A DNA stretch of 34,617 nt. Source: Rhizaria sp. SCN 62-66. Lineage: Eukaryota. This document shows, piece after piece, positions 6,767 to 34,617 of the stretch. The position numbers and the translations under genes are program-made. The notes under the pieces were generated by a model, which was not told where the DNA came from, ran no database searches, and saw only the letters and a list, made by a program, of their open reading frames with translations. The DNA lies in the NCBI GenBank assembly GCA_001724265.1, contig MEDY01000327.1:1-34617 (forward strand), given 5' to 3'. The first letter of the stretch is position 1, and each line of letters starts with the position of its first letter.

Positions 6767-7243
6767 ATGACCGATCGCAACGCCTCGCCCTGGGGCCCGC
6801 ACGCACCGCAGCCGCGCGCAGCATACGCCCGCGCGCACCGTACGTCTTTATTTTATGTTTTATTTCTTGCATGTCTCTTTGTGTCGCTCTATTTCGATCC
6901 CCTCACCCGCTTTCCCATCTTCCGGCTTGCCTTATCTCTCTTAACCATCACGTCCAACAACACCGACCGCCAATTTCCGTTGCTTGTCTCACTTAGAAAG
7001 CAACATGGGCAGCGGATTTGGCCCCGCTGCAGTCTCCTCTGCCGCTAGCGGCGGCGGCGGCGGCGGCGCGTATGTCAACAACCCTTGGGGAGGCGCCGGC
7101 CCCTCAGTTGGCCCCTCTGCCGGCCCTAGCTCCGGCGCTGGCGCTGGCGCTGGCGCCTCTGGCTTTGACTACAGCAGTCACGGCCACACAGATCCGTATC
7201 AACAGCAGCAGCAACCCTATCATCAGCAGCAACAGCCGCCGCG

Positions 7244-7283
<40 letters not shown>

Positions 7284-8645
7284 TATCCGCAGCAGCAGTC
7301 GGGACCTGGCCAGCTGAAGCGGCCTTACACCGAGATGAATACTTACAGCGGCGACCAGGGCGGCCCTTACACTGGAAGCGACTGCACTTACAGCAGCGGC
7401 GGTGGTGCTGCGTTCTGTAGCAACGGCGGCGCGTCTAACCAACGCGTCAACATGAACGAAAACAGCACAAACAGCGGCAATGCCAGCGCGAGAGCAATTG
7501 CGGCTGCTTACGACCAGGGCTCCAGTCACTGCCACGGCCACTCTGCCTCACACGGCCACGGCGGCCCCTCCAACAAGAAGCCAGCCCCTGCCCATCGACC
7601 ATCCAACAGCCACAGTGCGGGTGCGAGCGCGAGTGCGGGTGCGGGGGCCGGGGCGGCTGCGGGGGCCGGGGCGGGGGCCGGGGCGGGGGCCGGGGCGGGG
7701 GCGAGGGCGGGTCGCGCCAGTGGGCTGGCTCCGAGTGCGCTGGCTCCGTCGGCCGCTCTTTTGGCGTTCATCAGCAATGTCCGCAACCTCTACAGCAGCT
7801 CGGACACCAACTCTGTCCATGGTCACTCCGCTCACGGTCACTCTGCAGTGGCCTCGGCGACGCTGCACGCGGCCCTCACGGCCTCCACCAGTCTGCAACA
7901 TCAGCAATGCCTGCTGCAGCTGCAACAACAGCAAAAGCCCAGCTCTGAGTCGGACATGGCTGCTGCTGCAGCGGCAGCGGCTGCTGCTGCCGTCGTCGCT
8001 GAGGCCAAAGCCAAAGCCGAGGCTGAGGCTGCCGCCGCCGTGGCCGAGGCTGAGGCTGCCGCAGCAACGGCCGAGGCGGCCCGCTGGCAAGCCCGTTGCC
8101 AGTCGCTCGAGGCCACCGTCGCCGCGCTCAAAAGTCAGGCCGCGTCGCCCGCAAGTCAGGCCGTGTCCCCGGCGACGAGCCAGGTCGCCCCGGATGATCA
8201 AAGTCAGGCTGCCGCCGCGGATCAAATGCAGGCCGCGCGCCGCGAGTGTTTGTCGCTCCAGCAACAGCTGTCCGAGGCCCAGGCCAGGCGGGAGACTGAC
8301 ATTGCGGCGGCGGCGGCGGCGGCGGCGCAGGCCGCGGAGGCCGCGGAGGCCGAGGCAGCGCGGCAGCGGCAGCAGCACGCGCACGAGGTAAAGCAGCTCC
8401 AGCTCCAGCTGCAGCAACAACAGCAACAACAGGAGCAGCAGCAGAACAATAACACAGGTTTGGACTCGTATGCGCAGGCGCAGCTGCAGGCGCAGGCGCA
8501 GGCTGCGGCGGCCGCGTTGGCCGAGGCCCAGGCGGAGGCGCAGGCGCAGCGGCGGCAACTGCAGGGCCAGCAGGGCGAGCTGGGCCACCTGCAGCAGCTG
8601 CTGCAGCAACAGCAGCAGCTCGTTCAGTCGCTCAGGGCGCAGTTG

Positions 8646-8677
<32 letters not shown>

Positions 8678-9041
8678 GCAGCAGCGCAACAACGGTAGCT
8701 TTGGTTTCGACGACTCCAAGACGGGCGGCCTAACTTCCGGTGGCGGCTTACCTTCTGGCGCGGCCCCTGTCCCGTCGGCGGCGGCGGACCCCACGAGCGG
8801 GTTCATGACCGGCAGCCAGCGCATGCTATACGACGAGAACCTGCGCCGCCGCCGCGCGGGACTGCCCCCCCTCACGTCGCTCGCGCAGATCACCAGCGGC
8901 GGCAACAACAATACCAACAACAACAAGAACATGTATAACAACAACAATAATAATAATAATAACAATGCCAACAACGGCGCCAAGCTTGCCGGCGCGCCAG
9001 GCTTCGTCCGCAACGCCTTCGCCCCACCCCGCCCCCTCTCC

Positions 9042-9075
<34 letters not shown>

Positions 9076-10682
9076 GCAACAGCGGCTCGGTCGGCTCGAA
9101 CGCCAACTCCGCTGCGGGCGCCAGCGGCGGTGCCGCCGGGAGCGGTGGCGCCGGTGCCGCCCCGACCGAGGGCCCCGGCGGGATCCCTCTGGACGAGAAC
9201 GGGCGCATGCCGGGGCGGCTGGCGGCGTGCGACCCGGCGCTGGTGGAGACGATCCTGCACGACATGCTCGACAGCTCGCCGCAGGTCCGCTGGGACGACA
9301 TCGCCGGGCTTGAGTTCGCGAAGAAGTCCGTGGTCGAGGCTGTGGTGTGGCCGCTGCTGCGCCCGGACCTCTTCTCGGGCCTGCGCGGGCCGCCCAAAGG
9401 CATGCTGCTCTTCGGGCCGCCGGGGACTGGCAAGACGCTCATCGGCAAGGCCATCGCGAGCGAGGCCAACGCCAAGTTCTTCTCCATCTCAGCCTCGACG
9501 CTGACGTCCAAGTGGCACGGGCAGGGCGAGAAGCTGGTGCGCGCGCTCTTCGCCGCGGCCGAGTACTTCGCGCCTAGCGTCATCTTCATCGACGAGATCG
9601 ACTCGCTGCTGTCGCAGCGCCAGGACGCCGAGCAGGAGGCGAGCCGGCGCATCAAGACCGAGTTCCTGGTCCAGCTCGACGGCGTCGCGACCAGCACCAA
9701 CAGCGTGACCACCGCCAGCGCGAATGGTAGTGTGGATAGCTCCGGGTATAACAATAACAACAACAATGACGACAACAGCAGCACTTCCCCCTCCGGCTCC
9801 CAGGGCCAGGGCCAGGGCCACGGCCACGGCCAGGGCCAGGGTCAGCCACAGCAGCCGAAGTCGAAGCACGTGCTGGTCGTGGGCGCGACGAACCGGCCGC
9901 ACGAGATCGACGAGGCCGCGCGCCGCCGCCTTGTCAAGAAGCTCTACGTGCCGCTGCCCGACGCTCGCGCGCGGCTGGCGCTGCTGACGCTGCTGCTCCG
10001 CACCGAGCGCCACTCGCTGCCGCCCGCCGCGCTGGACGCCGTGGTCACCGCCACGGACGGCTACTCGGGCGCGGACCTGCGCGCGCTGTGCACCGAGGCC
10101 GCGTTCGGGCCGCTGCGCGAGCTGCGATCCGTCGTTGACGTACGGCCGGAGAGCGTGCGCGGCATCGAGGGCAGGGACTTTGACCAGGTACGTGCGGTGC
10201 TGTGATGCAGCGAAATGATGCAAAATATGTGGGGATATGCATTGGTGCTGCGAATTTCACTGAACTTTTTTGTTTTGTGTTGTTAAAAGTGTTCATTTTG
10301 CGTATTTATGTTGCTTTCATGCTTGCTCATCACTCTATGCTCTTTGTCTCTTTGACTCTTTGTTGTTGTTTCACCCACACACACGCAGGCGCTGACGCTG
10401 GTGCGCGCGTCGGTGGACAAGAAGGACCTGCGGCAGCTGGAGGACTGGAACCGCTCGTTCGGCTCTTTCCTCACCGACGACGAACGCTCTGACCCCAACA
10501 GCGGCACCAAGAGCGGCCAGGCCAACGATGCGGGCGTGACTAGCAGCGGCAGCGGCAGCGGCGCTGGCGCTGGTGGCGGCGGGAGCAGTGCGCCGCTGGG
10601 CGCGGTGGCTGCGGCGGCGGCGCGGGCGCTGGCGGCTGAGGCTGCGGCGGCTGGCAACAGCCGTGGCGGCAGCCAAGACTGA
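6767..10682 (+). CDS. FIGNL1: Fidgetin-like 1 AAA+ ATPase; exons 6767-6839, 6997-10187 and 10389-10682, about 1185 aa
   Basis: Contains [58 protein letters not shown] (Walker A), [19 protein letters not shown] (Walker B), [16 protein letters not shown] and GYSGAD. The last exon gives the Vps4_C-like [22 protein letters not shown]. Introns 6840-6996 and 10188-10388 are GTACGT...AG and preserve frame. Confidence 0.9.
7641..7711 (+). repeat. GCGGGGGCCGGG-type tandem repeat encoding an (Ala-Gly)n tract
   Basis: Repeated G4-G5 runs separated by C or CC within the FIGNL1 N-terminal region. Confidence 0.85.
9042..9074 (+). repeat. (AAC)11 microsatellite encoding poly-Asn
   Basis: Perfect trinucleotide run in frame in FIGNL1. 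Confidence 0.9.
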
Positions 10683-11230: not shown

Positions 11231-13292
11231 ATGCCTCCCCGCAAGCGCCCCGCCGACAGCACCACCGCAACCAACGCAAGCGGCGCCGCTGCCGCCATCT
11301 TCCAGGCCGCCAAGAAGCCCGCCCCGTCCTCTTCAGCGGCAGCTAACGACGCGCTTGGCAACTGGCAGCTCCTGGGCCCCAAGCAGACCCTCTACGCCCG
11401 CGCCCCCACCTCCCTGCCCGCGGCATTCATCGCCGCCCTCGCTGCCCATCGCAGCAACGACGATAGCAGCGGCAGCAGCGGCGCCGACGCCGAGGCTGCG
11501 GGCGCGGCGCCGAAGCTCAAGGTGGCCGCGTTTGACATGGACGGGACGCTGCTGGTGCCCAAGTCGGGCGCGCCTTTCCCGCGCGACCGCTTCGACTGGC
11601 AGTGGTGGAGCCCCCACGTCGCGGAGCGGTACGATCATTCGATACTGTTGCACTAAAACACAATCATTATGTTTACTGTTGTTCTATAAGTAAATTCTCA
11701 TTCGTTTACTTTGACTCTTATCCTGTTTGTATCACACTCTGGTTGTTTCTTTAGGTTGAAAGAGCTTCACAATGAAGGCTACGCCATCGTCATCTTCTCC
11801 AACCAGGCCGGCGTGTCGAAGAAGAAGCAGAGCGCGAGCGACCTGACCGGCAAGATCGACGACGTGGTCACGGCCACGGGCGGACTCCCTATCGCGGCGT
11901 ACTTTGCGATCGACAGCGACCACTACCGCAAGCCGTGCCCGGGCATGTGGTACCAGTACTTAGACCATCTAAGGGTCCTCCTGCCTTCGTGGCATCACGC
12001 TGCGATCAGTCAAGACGCGGCAGGCCTTGTCTCCCTCTCAGACAGCAACGGCGACAGCAATAGCAACAGCAACTGCGCCGTCCCGCCCGCGCTGAGCTCC
12101 TGGGTGGACACGGCCGCGTCCTTCTTCTGCGGCGACGCGGCGGGCCGCACGGCGCCCACGGCCCCCACGGCGCACAGCAAGGACTGGCGCAAGGACCACA
12201 GCGACGCCGACCGCTGCTTTGCCGGCAACGCCGCGCTGCCCTTCGTGGTCCCCGAGCAGGTCCTGCTGCCCGCGGGCCGGGTCAGCGCGGCGGGCCCCGC
12301 CAAGGGCAGCTGGGCCGTCAAGGCGGGCGCGGGCGCTGGCGTGGCGACGGCGGCGCTGGCGGACCGCGCCGTGATCGAGCAGTACGCGCGGCAGAACGGC
12401 GCTGCGGTGGTGGCCAGCAAGGAGGTCGTCGACCGCCTCATCGCCACCGGCCCCGGCGCTGCCACCCGCAGCAACAGCAACGCGCCTGGCGGCGACGGCG
12501 ACGAGAGCAAGACGAGTGACGGCAACGACGCGCTGGAGGTGGTCGTGATGGTCGGCGCCCCCGCGTGCGGCAAGTCTACCATCGCGCGGGCCCTCTGCGC
12601 GCTCCCGGCCGCATACGGCCACTCCGGCGTCGCCGCTTCCGCCGACAGCGTCGTCGGCGCAGCGGCCTACGAGTGGGTCAACCAGGACACGCTCAAGACT
12701 AAGGAGAAGTGCGCCGCGGCGGTCGCGGCGGCGCTCAAGCAGGGCCGCAACGTCGTCGTCGACAACACCAACCCCACGGCCGAGACGCGCGCGCTCTACA
12801 CACGCGCAGCAAAGATGGCCGCCGCGGCGATGTACGTATCCACGCCTTATTTGCGAACATATTCACTCCAGATTTATTTGATTTTGTTCAATTTAATGTT
12901 TCTATGCTATGTTATATCTTTACTCATCACTTTCTCCCTCGTGTCTCCTTGTTTTTTCTTCCCTCAGCGGTCGCCCCGTGCGCCTGCGCTGCGTGTTCGT
13001 GGCCGCGCCCAAGGCCGTGGCCATGCACATGCTCTCGGTGCGCGCGTGCGTCTCCGCGGGCGCCGCGCCGCACGTGCCGGGCATTGCCGTTAACATGTTC
13101 TACAGCAAGCTCGAGACGCCCGCTAAGGCCGAGGGCTTCGACGAGGTGCTCTACGTGCCCTGGGAGCCCGTGTTCCCTGCGAAGCCCGACAGCAACAGCA
13201 ATAGCAACAGTAGCGAGAGCTCTGCGCTGGGCGGGACGGCGCTGTACAGTGATGTATGGCCGCTGGAGACGGTGTTCAACTGGTATCATTGA
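11231..13292 (+). CDS. PNKP: Bifunctional polynucleotide 3'-phosphatase/5'-kinase; exons 11231-11628, 11755-12831 and 12968-13292, about 599 aa; no N-terminal FHA domain visible
   Basis: HAD phosphatase motifs: AAFDMDGTL, IFSNQAG, YRKPCPGMW, FFCGDAAGR, DHSDADRCFA. Kinase motifs: VMVGAPACGKST, WVNQDTL, VVVDNTNP, EGFDEV. Phase-2 introns 11629-11754 and 12832-12967 join the frames. Ends in TGA. Confidence 0.92.
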
Positions 13293-16600: not shown

Positions 16601-19600
16601 GACCATGACCTGGCTGGGCGGGAACTCGCGCGCGAAGAGCAGGCGCAGCCAGCGCAGCAGGAAGATCTGCGGCAGCGCGCCGGCCTCCTCGAGCGCCGCG
16701 TGCACGGCCGGGTCGGCGTGGCGCAGCAGCACGTCGTAGATGAAGAGCATCTTGCGGTCCAGCAGGCTGCCGAACTGCTGCAGGTCGCGCGCCGTCGTGC
16801 TGGCGCTGTCGCCCGCGTGCGACGAGTGCAGCTGCAGCTGCTGCAGCGACAGCGGCAGCGGCACGGCCGGCAGCGCCAGCTGCGGCAGGTGGTAGCGGGC
16901 CCGGACTAGCTGGCGCTGTTGCAGCAGCGACTGCAAAGTCTGCTGCTGCTGTTGTTGCTGAGAACCTGCGGTACTCGGCTTGTCAACGAGAGTATTGCGA
17001 GTGCTTGTACTGCGGAGAATCGTCGCTGCAGCCGCGGTCGCAACAGCAACGCCAATGCTGTTGTTGCTGCTGTTGCCGCTGCTGCCGTGCGTACTGTGCC
17101 CGTGGCCGCCGTGGCCGTGCGCAGCGGAGGCCTCCATGTGATCGTTGGCGGTGAGGTAGTACACTGCGACCCGAGACATGATGCGATCGAACAGCACGTA
17201 CGCGTCGGCCTCGAGCGCCTTAGGGTGCAGCAGCGCAATGACGTCGCTGTTGACGTCCATCGCCACCGCGCTGTTGCCGCCAACGCCGCTCGCGTTGCCG
17301 GGGCCGTAGTCGCCGAAGCCGCCGCCCCCGCCGTGCTGCTGCTGGTGGTCGCCGTAGTCGTCGTCGTCGCCGGTGTAGCCCACCGCCGCGGCCTCGGCCT
17401 CGGAGTCGAAGAGCGAGTTGGCCTCACCGTCGCTGCGCAGCGCGAGCAGCACAACGGCCAGCACCTCGTTCATGCCCTGCTTGTAGCCGACCTCGCAGTG
17501 GTCGAGCGCCCACGTCACGAGCACGCGCTGCATGAGCCGGCGCGTGGAGCGCAGGCAGAAGAAGACGCGCCCAGCGTGCGTGCGTGCAACGTCCTTGGCG
17601 ACGAGCTGGCGCAGGTCGATGTGGTACTGGCGCTGGTGGAACAGCGAGGCGTCGTGCCGCGACAGCGTCAGCGGGTCAGACGCCGTCGCGGCCGTGGCCG
17701 TGATCGAGTGGCGTGCGACCGGGGTCGTGTTGCTGTGCGAGACCGCGCTAGGACGGTGGCAGCTGCTGTTGTTGTTGCCAGGGGTGTTAGCGCCCATCAA
17801 GGACGTGCTCGTTGTGCGCGTCGTGAAGGCGGTAGTCCGCAGCAGCGGGTCGGCCTGCTCGCCGTCGCTGTCGTCGCCGTCGGGGCCAGCGCTGCCGATG
17901 ATGCTCTTGACGCCGGCAGGGCGACTCGCGGTGTTTTGGCCCTGCTCATCGTCACATGTGTTCGCTTTGCCCGCAAACAGCGCCAAGCCGCCGAGTTTGC
18001 CGGCGTTCGCACTGCTGTCCTCGCCGCTTGCGCTAGCAACGCCGATGCTCGCTCTCGCTGCGCTAGCCCCAGCGCCAGTGCCAGCGCCAGTGCCAGTGTT
18101 GGTGGCGCCACGCAGCGTCATAATCTCGACGTGCAGCGCGCCGTAGGCGGCGGCGATGCGGCCGTACTCGCGCCGCAGCGCGCCTGCACAGGCCGCGGCG
18201 GCCTTGAGGTACCGTTCGTGGTGGCTGCGGCCGAGGTGCGCCGTCAGCACGGCCGACGGGATGACCGCCAGTGCGGCCGCTAAGGCCTGCGCCGCGGGAG
18301 GGTGGCCGCTCGCGGAGCAAGAGGAAATGGGAGCAGCAGCAATGAGGCTGTTGCCCGCTGGGTTTGTGCAACTACTGGTCGTGCTTGTGCTGATGCTCTC
18401 GTCGTCATTGTTAGTGTACATATCAAGGTCGTAGTAGTCGCTATCGTTATAGCATCCACAGCTCGAGCAGCGGTAGCAGCTGCACTGAGTTGCCGTGTTG
18501 GTATCGCTGTTGTTGCTGCTACTGCTCTTGTCAATAGAAACACCATCTGTGTTCTGATTATTGGCATCAAAGCTACGATTCGCGGCAGTGATGTTGTTCC
18601 TATTGTTTATCATACTTGCGTTGTTGTGAATATTGAGGCTGTGACTGTGGTTAAGGCTTTGGCTGTGAGTGTGGTCGCCTCCGGTGCCTGCGTGGTACTC
18701 CGTGCCGCGAAAGCCGGCGTCGTAGCCAGACATGTCGAGCGCGGACACGTAAAACATGTCACTGTTGCTGCCAGAAGCGCCACCCGCACTCACCCTCGCA
18801 CTTGCACTCGAACTCGCACTCGAACTAGAGCTAGAGCTCGTCACAGCCAGTTGCTGCTGACTCAAGTTCGCATTGTTTGGCAAAACGACAGTTGGAGGAA
18901 GGTTACTACCATTGCTTGCATCATTTTCAGTGTTGCCATGGTGAATCACAGAGTAGCCGTGAACGCAGCGGTCCCCGTTGGCAGTCTGTTGTTGTTGCTG
19001 TTGCTGCTGCTGCTGGGACTGCTGCGGGTGCAGCGGCGGCAGCGTGTCGTAGTCGTAGTCCTCGCGCCAGACGGCGCCGTCCCTGTTGCCGGGCGCAATC
19101 TGCCCCAGCAGCGCGCGCAGCACGCGCGGCGGCACGGCAGCCTTCTGCTCGCGCGTCAGCGCGCTGGGCAGCGCCGAGACCGCGGTGTCGACGCCCAGGC
19201 AGCGGCGCCACGTCAGCGTGCGCCAGATCGTCGCCACAGGCGCGGGTGACACCGAGAGCAGCAGCGCCACCGCGGTCGCGGGCGTGAGCGCCGCCGCCGC
19301 CGCCGACGGAGCGGCTGGAGCAGACGCAGCCGCGGCCGCGGGGCTAGCGCTTGTCGTCGATGCTGCAGCGTCGCCGGATGCTGCTGCATTGGCCGGGCTA
19401 GAGCGAGAGTGTTGGACACCGTAGGACCGCGCGCGGCTGGCAGCGCTCCCGCTCACAGCGTCGAAGCCTGAGCCTGCCGCCGAGGAGCTGCTCGACGACG
19501 AGGTAACCACGGCGTTCGCACCTTTGCCACCACTCTCCGCGTTATAGTCGAAGTTGTTACAGGGCGCGGTGGGCGTGGTGAGCATCATGTCGGCCGGTGG

Positions 19601-27904: not shown

Positions 27905-29079
27905 ATCGAGCAAGTCGTCGCAAACCAAGTCAGCGCGACTGTTGCTATGGTTGCGCTGAGGCTATGTTGGCTGGTTGTTGTTGCTGTTGATTATCGAGCA
28001 TTCGAAGAAGTATTATTAAGATATGGCGTAGAATATAAAGGATTTCAAGTGAGATTCCTCACTAAATTAGTTATAACGCTTTTTTAATTACTATACTAGC
28101 GAGTTAAATTCATCGTCATTTGTTCATGTGTGTGTCTAGTGCGTGAAAAACAGGGCTTAAGAAGGATTCTATCACGAGGCACGTGGGCCCAACACAAGGC
28201 ATATTCTGGCAAGATCAACACAAACCAAAGCAACGCTGGGATATTATTGACGTACAATGCTTAAGAGCACGAGAAAAAGTCTATATTAGCGCTGCCCTCG
28301 GTCTTCGTTGCTTGCTGGCGACGGGGCGTTACAAAGCTCGAGGATGTAAAGCCGTGCGAGTCCTGCGATTGAATGGTATCTGGGAAGCAAGAAATATCGC
28401 TACAAGTGAGCGTGTAATTTAGTCAGTATACATATATAAAGTGCGTATAACATATATCCAAGCTACGTGACCATCTGACGACGTAAAACGCTTGAGCTGA
28501 TCTCGCCTGTACCATCGAGTCCCCCCTCTCCCACCACAGTCCATCGGCAACAAAGTTGCATGTCGTCGGCAAGCGCGGGACACCCTTCGGGCCATGTCGC
28601 TCCCTGCGAGAAACCTGGCCGACGAAAGAAGAGATAATCTTGGGTTCCCGTCGAACCTCTTCCCTGTTTTCTTATTCGGAGTTAATTATGTTGATATCGT
28701 TTTTGGTGGCAAGTTTCTATCGTCATAGCTGTCGATATAGGCTGTGTTTGACGCCATTAAAGTGTGCTGTTTCTCCCTCGAGACCTGCAGACCACAGCAC
28801 TACTGTATCTACCTCTAGCAGCTTCACACAAGCAGCGGGTACTTCATATTTCGAATATCTATCTTATTTAACATACTGTTCTATCTTGTTGTGCGTGTTT
28901 TATCTCATCAGCTGCTGGCATCCCCTCCAATCTCCCCTTTCCAATTGCCTCCTCGTGTCACCCTCGCTTCCAGAGCTAGCCCCCACGCCCTCGGCTCCGA
29001 CGCTCGACAACAAACACCTCTACGGCTACCCTTGTGCCACAGCGCTGACCCGAGGCGCTTGTGTCTTTTAGAGCCGTTG

Positions 29080-29847
29080 ATGCAGCCGACCCGCCCTCTC
29101 CGCGGCGGCGCCGGCCGTGCCCCGGTTCCCGCTGTTCCTGCTGCTGCACCTGCACCTGCACCTGCACCTGCTGCTGGAACTGCTGCTCCTGCACATGCAA
29201 CCCACGGCCACAGGCACCACGTCCCGGCTCCCCCCGTTGCTGCCACGGCGCACCTGCTGCCCGCGAACGACAACGTGTCGCAAATGCTGCTTGCAGGCTC
29301 CTTCGCGCCCTCGCACCCGTACCTCACCCTCAGCGGCACCACCAACAACCCCAGCGCCCCCGCCGGCGCCGCGAGCGCAAACGCCCTCAACATGAGCGGC
29401 AGCGGGAAGATCATGGCTGCCGCGGTCACCCCGGTGGTTCCCGGCGTCACCAGCGCGAACATCATGCTCACCAACGGCATGATGCCCTCGCTGCCTCTCG
29501 CCACAACATCAGCCAGCGAGACCGCCGCGTGTCCGCCTGACAGCACGGCCGCCGGTGGGATCGGCGACGCCGCGCTGTGGGGCATTTACGGCCCCTACGC
29601 CGCCAACACGCTTGCGCCGCTGTTTCCGCCCGCGGCCGCGACCGCAGCCGACTGCGACGCCGTCAACGCCAATGCCGACGGGGGCTGCAGCACGAGTAAC
29701 AGCAATCCCGTTGGGGCGACGCCGCCTGCAGCGAGCACTGGCGCGAGCGCCATTTCCGTGAGCGGTACGAGTAGCTTTGACGCCCACGCCAACGCTGGCA
29801 CTGGTGTCGCTGCAGTCTCTGAGGCTGACGCGCATGCTGCTGCGACA

Positions 29848-29894
<47 letters not shown>

Positions 29895-32800
29895 AGGCCC
29901 TATTGCGAGTCCGGTTGCTGTGAGCGATGCGACTAGCGCGAGCGGCCTCACGACAAGCGACATCAGCACGGACTCTGATTCGAACGCCTCGAGCCCGGTC
30001 TCGCCCACCTCCGAGAGCCACAACGGCAGCAACGCCGACGCAGCGGCTGCGGCTACGGCTGCGGCAACCGCAGTAGAGTCGCTCTCGCTCAACGTGTCGG
30101 GCAGCAACTCGACCACAGCAGGCGCCAACGCGAAGCAGAGCTCCAGCGCCGCTGTCAGCGCGAGTGTTGGCGCCGGCTCTACTGCTGCTGCTGCTGCGGG
30201 AGGCTCTCAGCTGTCCCGCTTACTACGCAACCACAACCAACAGAGCTCTAGCTCCAGCGCCGCCGGCGCCGGCAGCGCGATGGTCTCGGGCACCTACCGC
30301 GGCTCCACCCCTCTGGCGTCCGGCAGCGCGTCGAGCGCCGGCGGCGGCGGCAGCGGCGGCGGCGCGGGCGGCGGCGCGCAGGATGCCGGCACCGTGTACG
30401 TCCCGGGGCTGGGCGCGGTGCCCGTCGCCGCGGCCACGGCCACGGCGGCGTACCCGGGCACGGTGACGACTCTGGACATCACCACTCGCGACGACCTGGC
30501 CTCGAGCGCGGTCGCCGTCGGCGCCATCGGGCCCGCGCCCGCGCAGACCACCAGCGCCAGCGCTCTCGCCGACTCGAGCAGCAGCAGCAGCACCGGCGGC
30601 GGCGGAGGCGGCGGCGGCGTCATGACGGGCGCGTACGGCGGGGCTCCTGTCTCCGCGAACGCCGCTGCGGGCGGCAACGGCGCCGGGGCGATCAACACGG
30701 CCGCCGCGGGCGCCGGCCTGGGCGGCCTCGGCATGGGCATGGGCATGGGCACAGGCGCCGCGGGCGGCCGGCTCGGCGGCGGCCTAGGCGCTGCCGGCGG
30801 CGGCGGCGTCAGCGGCGGCGGCGGCATGGGGCCGGACGGGTTCTACTGCACTGTATTCTTCCCGTCGCTGCCGTGCGCCAACGCGACGACGCTGCATCAA
30901 ACGCACACGAACATCACGAGCAGCAACGGCGCCAGCGCCAACGCCGTGGCGGACCCGCTGTTTATCCAGCTCATCGTGCCGCCCAACTGCACTGCGCAGC
31001 ACCTGACGACGCTGGCGCAGCGCACACTGCACAAAGACCTCGTGCGCCGCCGCCTGCGGTCCGCCACGGGCGTCAGCGCGGGGCTCGCGGCGCACATCGT
31101 GCTGCGCTACCGCCACAGGCTGGGGCTGCACCCCATCACGTTCACGCCGCCCAGCGCCAGCGCCGGCGCCGGCGCCAGCGCCGCGGGTACTGCTGTCGGG
31201 GGCGCGAGCGCGGCTTCGCCCGCCGCGAGTAATAACGTCGAATATGTGAGCGACCCGTTGAGTGTGCTGGAGCCCAACTTCACGGTGTCAGACCTGTTTG
31301 GACCGCTGCCGCCGTGGTACGTCGAGATGTACTGCGAAAAGCGCCGGCACAACAAGCGGCACGGACACGGACACGGCCACGGACATGGTCACGGTCACGA
31401 TGCTGCCCCAGGCGCCACAAGCAGCCGCTACAGCAGCCACGGCGCCGCGGGGGCGCACGGGCACGCGGGCGCGGGCTCTGCTGCGGGCTCTGGCTCTGCT
31501 GCTGGTGTGACCTCGGGCGACATCGCGAATGCGTACAGCTTGGTTGCGTGGAACGAAGTGGACAACAACATCGACACAAACTACCCTCCGTTCACGTCCT
31601 ACTCCAAAGTGACGCTGCTCGACCTCACTGCGTTTGCCGTCGTGCCCAACGACCCCGATCCGCCTCTAAGTACCCCCGGCGCGGCATCTAAGGGCGGCGT
31701 GCGCCGGCGCGGCCAGGTCAACGACTCGGACTCGGACAATGCAGGCCTCAATAACAACAGCAACACAAACGCCCACGCCGGAGGCTTCGGCGGCCTCAGC
31801 GACAGTGATAGCGAGAGTGACGACGACGGCGCTGGCTATCGTGGCGGCCGCCGCAGCATCCGCGGCAGTCGCCTCGGCGGCGCGGGCGGCGGCAACGACA
31901 ACGACCCGCTGGGGCTGGAGCAGTTCCGCCGCATGCTGGCCGCGCAGGACGCTGCCGCTGCCGCCGCCGCCGCCGCCGCGGGCGCGCCCACCCCCAGCAG
32001 CGCCGCCTCGATAGACGCCATCGGCCACGGCCACGGCCGCGGCCGCCACGGTGGCGGCGACGGCCACGACGACGGCCACAACGACGATGACGACGACGAT
32101 GACGACGACGGGGCCTGGTTCGGCCAGTCGTCCCGCGGCCGCACCTCGTCCCAGGCCCCGCCGCGGCCGCCGGCGCACCTGCGGGCGCCGCAGACGCAGA
32201 CGCAGACGCGGCAGGGCGCCCCCACAGTTGTCGTCGCCGGCAGCGGAAGAGGCGGGCGGAACCAGATGCAGAGCAAGCGCGACCGCAACAACGCCGACGG
32301 CATCAGCAGCAGCAAGAGTGTTTCTGGCAGTCAAAGTGGTGTTTCAGGTGGCAAAGGCAATGGCAAGAGTGACAGTGGCAAAAAGAAAGGTTTCTTTGCG
32401 CGGCTCTTTTCGTGCGGCTGTCTGAGCCCTGGGTCGACTGGCGGACTGGCCCTGGAAGATGGCGGCAGCGACAGCGACGGCGACGACGGGCACCGCAACA
32501 GCAACAGGCACAGTAGTCACGACAACCACAATAACAACCGCAATGCTCATCATAGTAGTAGTAATATTCAATTGACTGAAAACATCCCCAAGATTCATCA
32601 TATCAGTGTTGGCGCTGGCGCTGGCGCCGGTGTTTATAATGGTGCTGGTGGACAGCAGCATGAGATGTAGCAAAAGAGCCTGTACCGGACCGCGAACAAT
32701 GCTAGTACGAAGACGAACAGTACTGGTAACACTGTTCCCAATAACAGCAGCAACAACAACGTTGATGTGGCCGTGACCTCTGCCGGGCGTCCGTCTGTGT

Positions 32801-33450
32801 CGATCACGAACACAACTGCACCGACACCGAATCACAACAACAATAGCCATAACCGCCACAACAGCAGCAGCAACACGAACATGAACGCGATCGCCGCTAC
32901 GTACGACAACGACAACGATGATGAAGCGGAGAGTGGCGTCGGCGCTGGCGCTGGGGGGCGCAGAGGCAGCGGAAGTGTGAGTCTGATGAGTAGCGCGAGC
33001 TTCAGTCAACAGAGCAAGAACAGCCACAAGAGTGCGTCGCACGCGAACATCACGCACAGCAAGAGTAAGGGTGGCAAGGGCAGCAAAAGCAAGACTAAGA
33101 CTAAAGGTGGTGCGTACGGTGTTGGTGACAGCGAGGGCGACTATGACTTTGACAGCGTTAACATCAATGACGATAAGGACAACCACATGGCAAATAACAA
33201 GAGCGGTCACGCGGATAATGTCAACACCAACAAGCCATTGGGCAGCGTAAGTCATAACAACAGTCGCAGTGCAAGCCGGAGCACCAACAGGAGCAACGAG
33301 CATTCGACGCGTCACTCTGCACACTCTATCGGTGTTGATGTCGACGTTGATGCGATCGGCGCCGCGGTCCGTGGCGGTGGTCGTGACTTTGATCTTGACG
33401 ATGTTGACCACCGAGAAGACGGGGTGGCTGTGGAGATTGAGCTGAGCTAA
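29080..33450 (+). CDS. Large low-complexity protein of unknown function: 1196 aa to TAG 32668-32670, or 1456 aa if that TAG is read through to TAA 33448-33450
   Basis: Continuous GC-rich frame from ATG 29080. ORF 32767..33450 is in the same frame with no stop between 32671 and 33447 and has similar Asn/Ser/Gly/Asp/His composition. AT-rich DNA starts only after 33450. Confidence 0.7.
29851..29892 (+). repeat. (GCT)14 microsatellite encoding poly-Ala
   Basis: Perfect trinucleotide run. Confidence 0.9.
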
Positions 33451-34354
33451 TCTTCTGTAAATTGCACGCACGCTTTTAATAGCTTTAATGTGTGGTTTTG
33501 TGTTTTTGAGGCTGCCTCATGTCACCCTCTTGAGCTGAAATGATTTCGATCCTTCTTGAATTCATATTCAAGTTTATTTGTTTCAATACATTTTTAATTA
33601 TGAACCACGGCTGTCACACTGAAACTATTCATATATGCTGCTCAAACACAAACCTTGAGCGGTTATTTCGCTGATATTAATAAGCTTACTGTCCAGATGC
33701 CGTCAGATGAGAATTTGCCGAAATCGGCTCCGGAGGCACTTATTTCGGACGTATTTCTTTCCTATAGAAGTCGTTTTAAACCGCTAAAATTGTATTTTAA
33801 AGCGGAGTTAGCCCTATATAGTGTTGTTTTGTTATTATTTGCGCGCAGTTTGAATTTGATGGGCGTAGCTAGGTCTAAAAAAGCGTCAAAATTCGAATTG
33901 TTGGCGTGTTATAAAATTTTATTGCCTATATAGGCCTTTGTTAAAAAATACAACATATGTTTATAAATACAAAGAGATCACACACTTAAATATACCCCTG
34001 TTTTTTCGAAACACTTTCATTGTAAAAATCTGCAATGTGCCAAAGTGGGGCTGCTCCTGGAATTTCGATTGAAGTCACCTTCGAAGCCCCTCCAATGCCG
34101 TTTTATGTGTTGTCAAAGACACTATGAATCAAAGTTATTTTAAACAAAACTAAGTATTTAATCGTCTAAACTACTGTTGTGCTAAGTGATAGTGCTTAGT
34201 TTTGAATAACTCATGATCTAACCCACTTTAGTAGCGAATGCGTCGAAAAACATCGTTTCTGTGGCCGCTTTCTTCTCGCTTTTGTCCTTATACCCGGAAT
34301 TAGTTTGAGAATAAAACAACATATTAACAGAATACTGCGCTTAAAAACACGCAT

Positions 34355-34617
34355 TTACAGCTGGTCTTGGGTCAAGCCAAGCATCATCCTGAACCCGTCG
34401 ATGACGGAATGCGCTCGGGTCAGTGACAGACCGTACAGGGTCGCACGCACTCGCAGCATGATACTGTCCGCAGTAGATCCACCGGCTGCGGCTGCTTTCT
34501 CTTTCTTAATTTTCGCCGCCAGCTCACGCGTGTACATCTGGTAGAATTTCCGGAGTGCGTCACGATATAGCCTGAAGATCGTGATGTCCAGTGGCTGCAG
34601 CACCTTGGTCGCCTTGA
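34355..34617 (-). mobile_element. C-terminal fragment of a pogo/Tigger-like (Tc1-mariner superfamily, DDE_1) transposase, continuing beyond the window
   Basis: The minus frame reads KATKVLQPLDITIFRLYRDALRKFY, matching the T-x-x-LQPLD-x-x-IF motif around the third catalytic Asp of pogo-family transposases. Codon usage is less GC-skewed than in host genes. Confidence 0.7.

Follow-up and report, generated by a model that had tools for sequence, protein, structure and literature searches.

A lone in-frame TAG in a long protist reading frame is most probably a recent truncating mutation or a leaky stop, not a new genetic code

How should a single TAG be read that cuts a long and otherwise open, coding-like frame of a eukaryotic genome: as a sense codon, as a stop that a share of ribosomes passes, or as the mark of a mutation? 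The question is raised by contig MEDY01000327.1 (assembly GCA_001724265.1, Rhizaria sp. SCN 62-66), which was analysed over its full length of 34,617 nucleotides (nt), here called the window. It is 34.6 kb of nuclear DNA from an uncultured wastewater eukaryote, with an overall GC content of 62.6%, coding regions that are rich in GC at third codon positions (GC3), and AT-rich spacers. An initial annotation of this DNA had pointed to a lone TAG followed by 259 open codons on the plus strand, and had put forward UAG readthrough or a non-standard genetic code. The TAG is a genuine genomic stop codon that interrupts one continuous open reading frame (ORF), and we conclude that a truncating mutation of recent date or a leaky stop is its most probable explanation, and not a new genetic code.

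The TAG occupies 32668-32670 (+) within the codons CAG CAG CAT GAG ATG TAG CAA AAG AGC CTG. Upstream of it the frame is open from stop to stop over 28819-32670 (1283 codons), or over 1196 codons when counted from its first ATG at 29080. Letters and frame scan confirmed that 259 stop-free codons lie between the TAG and a TAA at 33448-33450, and that past the TAG no in-frame ATG occurs before 32881; GTG is met in frame at 32767, 32773 and 32797. The locus comprises:

29080..32667, plus strand: upstream part of the ORF, 1196 codons, predicted to encode a low-complexity Ala/Gly/Ser-rich orphan protein; codon score +0.33 per codon
~30829-31665, plus strand: less repetitive stretch of the upstream ORF
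32290..33450, plus strand: lower-GC module reaching from ~380 nt before the TAG to the TAA; GC ~0.51-0.58, GC3 ~0.5-0.75
32668..32670, plus strand: in-frame TAG, preceded by GAG ATG
32671..32676, plus strand: the two post-stop codons CAA AAG
32671..33447, plus strand: in-frame tail of 259 codons, Ser/Asn/Gly/Ala/Asp-rich and coding-like
33448..33450, plus strand: TAA closing the frame, with a GC content of 0.59 before it and 0.33 after it
33451..33687, plus strand: AT-rich unique 3' flank, the presumed 3' untranslated region, up to a multi-copy transposon
32344..33516, minus strand: antisense open frame of 390 codons that spans the TAG; codon score -0.40, not a gene

The tail behind the TAG carries a coding signal of its own. 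When 32671-33447 was shuffled with its dinucleotides preserved, one of 20,000 shuffles was free of in-frame stops (mean 9.2 stops), and the remaining two plus-strand frames of the tail hold 7 and 28 stops. A codon-usage score trained on four other ORFs within the window gave +0.205 per codon for the tail in the frame of the TAG, compared to -1.11 and -1.34 for the other plus frames and -0.40 for the best minus frame. The use of bases by codon position runs on across the TAG and changes at the TAA: A at third positions amounts to 8% before the TAG, 6-7% after it and 28% past the TAA, and T at first positions to 6-9% on either side of the TAG and 35% past the TAA. In agreement with the initial annotation, AT-rich DNA starts only past the TAA, whereas GC does not fall at the TAG (0.46 before it, 0.53 in the 150 nt after it). 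A similar drop of GC is found at the stops of the window's FIGL1 gene (0.81 to 0.37) and RabGAP gene (0.72 to 0.45).

A change of composition does occur in this gene, but 380 nt 5' of the TAG, where at ~32290 a ~75% GC, Ala/Gly-rich sequence switches in the same frame to a ~52% GC, Ser/Asn/Gly-rich one. The earlier statement that the tail has the composition of the sequence upstream is therefore right for the 126 codons directly before the TAG (G 19%, S 17.5%, N 9.5%, compared to S 16.2%, N 13.5% and G 9.7% in the tail) and wrong for the bulk of the upstream ORF, which is Ala/Gly/Ser-rich. Codon repeats are shared in frame by both sides of the TAG, with one family (D6) at 32610 and 32934, a spacing of 324, and another (D4) with spacings of 195, 363, 156 and 33, all multiples of 3. 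The passage is less than perfectly smooth, since in the last 50 codons 5' of the TAG the codon score drops to its lowest values in the ORF (-0.19 to -0.25), with a GC3 of 0.42, but these codons still score well above the other frames (-1.0 and -2.0). One continuous, intact and coding-like frame is thus cut by a lone TAG. On the opposite strand, the 390-codon frame is free of stops because the codons TTA, CTA and TCA are absent from the sense tail (0 occurrences of each). It matched no Pfam family at E values up to 1 and was rejected as a gene; its codon score is -0.40, and it merely mirrors how codons are used on the sense strand.

To judge whether the TAG is genuine, contigs of four public runs (X2, X4, X5 and X8) were compared with positions 28400-34617. 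Run X4, from another study (2025), holds a contig of 1,238 nt (32416-33653) that bridges the TAG with no other letter and no gap. Because this contig is independent, a base-call or assembly error is very unlikely, and the corresponding caveat of the initial annotation falls. Run X2, from another study (2017), has a contig at 32655-33028 that reads TAG without any other letter; with 13 nt 5' of the TAG it stays below our bridging rule. A 660-nt contig of run X5 (2024) at 32561-33220 bridges the TAG with one other letter, given as A>C. Were the place of this letter 32669, the codon would become sense. Over the unique parts of 28400-33653 the listed contigs of X2 and X4 have no other letters, and the sampled populations are nearly clonal. 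A further contig (L001), identical to the window over 33216-34617, repeats the 3' end of the window and extends it by 591 nt.

Run X8 was made from polyA RNA. It contains an identical contig of 212 nt (32983-33194), situated in the tail more than 300 nt past the TAG, and contigs without differences at 29294-29453, 29535-29833, 30703-31048 and 31531-31943 of the upstream ORF. Polyadenylation right after the TAG, an outcome considered by the initial annotation, is not favoured by the contig in the tail, with the qualification that polyA-RNA libraries may contain DNA. The gaps upstream of 29232 and after 33392 are absences of X8 contigs and were not used as evidence.

If UAG were a sense codon in this organism, further in-frame TAG codons should be met in other genes. 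Within the window no stop other than the TAG breaks a best-scoring frame in ~7,900 coding-like codons, counted over 13 ORF segments; the earlier figure of one TAG in ~8,500 codons was right about the sole stop and is replaced by this recount. The ORFs of FIGL1, PNKP, RabGAP-TBC, GET4 and SNRNP27 contain no in-frame TAG. When 112 stops with at least 50 open codons on either side were tested, the only one to pass the score threshold was at 16737, antisense to the RabGAP gene, and the TAG under study failed that threshold on its upstream side. The eight other ORF ends, not all of which are proven to be the ends of genes, have TGA or TAA and never TAG (0/8), a result expected about one time in ten if TAG had a share of 25%. 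For the rhizarian exLh, in which UAG encodes Leu, the sections of PMC5304391 drawn on here give 384 in-frame UAG codons in 71 genes, where the terminators are UAA (56) and UGA (15). With one in-frame TAG in ~7,900 codons, UAG as a general sense codon would have to be much rarer in the present organism than in all cases described so far. A non-standard code is therefore unlikely and can no longer serve as the leading reading; the host appears to give TAG its standard meaning.

The context of the TAG would nevertheless be expected to make it a poor stop. It is followed by C and by the codon CAA, and the initial annotation had already called this context leaky. According to the relevant part of PMC4615788, the base at +4 has the strongest influence on termination, UAG-C is seldom used in mammals, in yeast CAA after the stop is linked to high readthrough, and UAG-CAAUYA is the viral motif of type I. 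The second codon here is AAG, so that three of the six bases of this motif are present. Within the window C at +4 occurs at one of the eight other ORF ends, and CAA is rare (7 among the 1,455 sense codons of the ORF, compared to 23 CAG). From these features the termination context is predicted to be weak. A stimulatory RNA structure, which a minority of known readthrough cases possess, was not found: over 123 nt from the stop onward the fold was not significant (z -1.09, matched or exceeded by 30 of 200 shuffles). The window contains neither an Rfam family nor a tRNA gene. The 8-mer CAGCAGCA, enriched near insect readthrough stops in the data excerpted from PMC5100048, is present 8 nt 5' of the TAG; since it has 75 occurrences in the window, its position is uninformative.

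The introns of the window are AT-rich, ~125-200 nt long and start with GTACG(T/A), less often with GTATGT or GTAAGA; examples are found at 10189-10389 and 11630-11754, and the unusual consensus of the 5' splice site might help to place the lineage. As stated before by the initial annotation, neither an intergenic gap nor a GTACG-type intron is found at the TAG, and no intron of the GTAYG type removes it. The region 32290-32668 has no GTA[CAT]G start, the nearest GTACG (32705) lies 3' of the TAG in sequence that is not AT-rich, and no polypyrimidine tract precedes the TAG. Among the 15 joints listed, of 54 in all, none with plausible intron ends runs across the TAG; the listed joints nearby have sides of 21-24 letters and are of low complexity, typical of repeats or other organisms. 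A mini-intron of 39 nt (GT...TAG, 32632-32670) was tried and rejected, being unlike the introns of the window.

Relatives of the gene were sought in several ways. A word-indexed search with the read-through protein gave no match, and phmmer with its last 1,200 residues gave no hit among 1.84 billion representatives. Pfam returned no family at the default threshold or at E values up to 10, apart from a meaningless match to EPO_TPO (E 0.23). Related loci were not confirmed in any of the collections of metagenome, prokaryote-genome and viral contigs. Exact look-ups of start variants and of read-through forms with TAG as Q failed in all 17 cases, a result that has no bearing on whether a sense allele exists, since it is uncertain which start the gene caller took. 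By these searches the gene appears to be an orphan. A single-sequence AlphaFold2 model of 30829-31665 was unusable (mean predicted local distance difference test score, pLDDT, 35.8).

We tentatively favour the reading that the TAG is a young nonsense allele that has become fixed, in a weak UAG-CAA context with an incidental near-cognate leak. We infer that the mutation is young, and likewise infer the ancestral codon and the leak. The ancestral state would have been one ORF of 1,456 codons, and the simplest origin of the stop would be a change of CAG to TAG within the run Q-Q-H-E-M-?-Q-K. Most ribosomes would now stop at the TAG and release a protein of 1,196 residues. Since UAG followed by C and CAA is a weak context, a small leak is expected: a small share of ribosomes may insert a near-cognate Gln, Tyr or Lys and continue to the TAA at 33448, so that the former full-length protein is still made.

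If one ORF was interrupted recently, a continuous coding signature, shared repeats and no break at the TAG are to be expected, as is seen. Since no second stop or frameshift has arisen in 259 codons, any loss of constraint must be recent, and in nearly clonal populations fixation throughout is possible for a young allele that is neutral or does slight harm. The kind of stop also fits: in a GC3-rich gene NAG codons are the commonest one-step neighbours of stops, with 23 CAG compared to 7 CAA, and TAG is then the expected nonsense codon. In an orphan gene with a low-complexity tail truncation should be tolerated. Truncating alleles hit a few genes per thousand in the population genomics of yeast, flies and humans, and outside insects they are more frequent than genes known to gain a long extension by programmed readthrough. 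To our knowledge, extensions of 259 codons are unusual for readthrough, and we counted this against a programmed event.

Several observations weigh against a young nonsense allele. The TAG is present in all assemblies covering the site, from runs of 2017 to 2025, besides a run of 2015 that may be the source of the window, and from several studies, and no sense allele was seen. The UAG-CAA context, with a rare codon and a +4 C that recurs at one of eight ends, is what a selected leaky stop would show, and the absence of TAG from the eight other ORF ends mildly fits poor termination at TAG. An intact tail of 777 nt would be equally expected were the tail still translated. Finally, the A>C of the X5 contig is not among the differences listed (40 of 61, all at 33749-34368). 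In our judgement a nonsense allele, which the initial annotation had kept as a caveat (CAG>TAG), is at least as likely as readthrough.

Programmed readthrough would mean that the UAG is old and leaky under selection, and that a regulated share of the product is an isoform of 1,456 residues with a disordered C-terminal extension of 259 residues, made by near-cognate decoding as in many insect genes. This is possible and not much less probable than the favoured reading. A second in-frame ORF with an intrinsic coding signature stands behind the stop, the UAG-C and UAG-CAA context is of the weak type, the tail stretch 32983-33194 is found in the polyA-RNA library, the TAG is fixed throughout the assemblies covering the site, and the first ORF is long, which is a property of insect readthrough genes in the portion of PMC5100048 used here. 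Programmed readthrough, as one of the two proposals of the initial annotation, nevertheless does not take the lead: AAG replaces UYA so that the motif is matched in three of six bases, no significant structure follows the stop, codon usage passes the stop without a discontinuity, and relatives of the gene for a comparison of conservation were not found by the searches above. TAG is in addition the less usual stop, TGA being preferred in insects (PMC5100048, in part). If UAG were decoded as an amino acid, by UAG-only reassignment or as a rare ambiguous sense codon read by a suppressor tRNA, the gene would simply have 1,456 codons. The seamless coding signal, the missing TAG at the eight other ends and a weak rhizarian hint from FIGL1 would suit such decoding, the one UAG=Leu code mentioned in that part of PMC5304391 being in Rhizaria. 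We consider it improbable given one in-frame TAG in ~7,900 codons and none in conserved ORFs, as opposed to the 384 in 71 genes of exLh (PMC5304391, in part), given also that 0/8 arises by chance about one time in ten, that the window has no tRNA, that PNKP does not repeat the rhizarian hint and that new nuclear codes have a low prior. The form of this idea in which UAG is sense on rare occasions or with ambiguity, reassignment being at an early stage or dependent on context and TAA and TGA being the sole true terminators, is likewise a long shot.

Removal of the stop from the RNA, by adenosine-to-inosine (A-to-I) editing of UAG to UGG or by an unconventional splice, has a precedent in fungal genes whose premature UAG must be edited for a full-length protein; in the material taken from PMC11156358 and PMC5496914 this editing occurs in filamentous ascomycetes during sexual development. 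Here nothing points to an ascomycete host, and although an in-frame GT...TAG segment of 39 nt can be drawn, the region lacks an intron start of the window's type, a polypyrimidine tract and, among the joints examined, one with plausible ends across the TAG; no listed X8 contig covers 32668-32670. This explanation is very improbable. It is hardly credible that the tail lies outside this gene, as a separate gene from the ATG at 32881, as a minus-strand gene or as a chance open frame. Besides that ATG and the 390 open codons of the minus strand there is little to suggest it, for the coding signal begins right after the TAG, with 32671-32880 matching 32881-33447 in position-specific composition, and no AT-rich spacer intervenes, though GC drops after most other ORF ends. 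The minus frame is explained by the absent TTA, CTA and TCA codons, and chance is excluded by the shuffles. In favour of an artefact of assembly or base calling nothing was found; X4 bridges the site with no differences over 1,238 nt, X2 reads TAG and X5 bridges with one unplaced difference, and the probability of an artefact is nearly negligible.

The nonsense allele that we favour can be compared with known systems. Natural nonsense alleles likewise show a single stop in an otherwise intact ORF, with the downstream frame still open and coding-like, and the stop here falls in the last fifth of the gene, before a low-complexity and presumably dispensable tail. They differ from our case in that here neither a sense allele nor an orthologue was seen and the termination context is notably weak. 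The readthrough genes of insects (Drosophila and Anopheles; PMC5100048, in part) share with this locus the length of the first ORF, C as the base after the stop and a coding-like second ORF; they are defined by conservation across species, and the protist case differs in its TAG instead of the preferred TGA, in the lack of a predicted structure and in a very long extension. The type I leaky stop of viruses (tobamovirus type) and the CAA/CAAUUA context of yeast, as given in part of PMC4615788, have in common with our TAG that UAG is directly followed by CAA, but here AAG takes the place of UYA, and in a cellular gene readthrough is at most predicted. The reassigned UAG of exLh (Leu) and Iotanema spirale (Gln) resembles the present one in being in frame, with TAA and TGA as terminators and a weak rhizarian hint; in the passages of PMC5304391 on these codes there are several in-frame UAG per gene, at conserved positions, and here one per ~7,900 codons in a non-conserved tail.

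The window also carries these housekeeping genes:

6945-10682: fidgetin-like AAA ATPase (FIGL1), domain AAA, E 8e-37
11711-13093: polynucleotide kinase/phosphatase (PNKP), PNK3P, E 2.2e-30
RabGAP-TBC protein of 2,206 codons, domain match E 9.8e-20
GET4, family match E 1.2e-33
UPF0172 protein, family match E 3.6e-07
SNRNP27, family match E 5.1e-12

FIGL1, whose N-terminal part of ~800 residues is of low complexity, has its best named matches in two rhizarians, Paulinella micropora at 57% identity and 95% coverage and Nonionella stella at 78% identity across 46% of the query; those of PNKP are chytrids and Mucorales at ~30% identity. The FIGL1 matches are a weak hint of a rhizarian affinity of the host, which PNKP does not repeat. 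Rosculus was rejected as the host, since its genome has 37.7% GC (PMC10770858) compared to 62.6% in the window. Public runs with DNA of the window are metagenomes of bioreactors, wastewater, activated sludge and fuel cells and come from 9 studies. Among 20 runs listed, 18 contain the stretch or part of it, 4 of them with half of its words or more. In keeping with nearly clonal populations, a PNKP copy of other origin is identical in 459 of 460 residues, the start residue alone being different. The PNKP ORF is also present as a prokaryote-style gene call (P0124, 460 aa) that reads through the intron starting at 12832 and was seen on 6 contigs, the longest of 35,907 nt; the same organism has thus been assembled several times and annotated by bacterial gene callers. 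The window has a single N, at position 921.

A pogo/Tigger-type DDE_1 transposase (PF03184, E 4e-10) lies ~238 nt past the TAA. It belongs to 33688-34617 of the window, where a minus-strand ORF (34355-34615) runs off the end, and to 195-851 of L001. X4 and X8 cover 33688-34617 by a ~94% identical contig with a depth of 54 in X4, from which the transposon is multi-copy in the host and present in the polyA-RNA library. Both runs also have a contig that skips 572 nt at 33712-34285 (ends AT..TG, side of 21 letters), possibly a deleted copy of the transposon. Used as bait for further DNA of the host, the transposon fragment retrieved L001 alone, and nothing from genome contigs.

If the TAG is a young nonsense allele, the finding is an ordinary one and a matter of caution in annotation, and the gene model is best closed at the TAG, with a remark added. 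Its interest is modest unless readthrough or a sense UAG is confirmed. Were the stop leaky under selection, it would rank among the rare documented cases of long programmed readthrough (259 residues) in free-living protists, with UAG-CAA-AAG as a simple context for a reporter. If UAG were sense, this would be a further UAG-only change of a nuclear code, in an organism that is common in treatment plants and whose genome can be binned from existing metagenomes, so that an early stage of codon reassignment would be directly testable.

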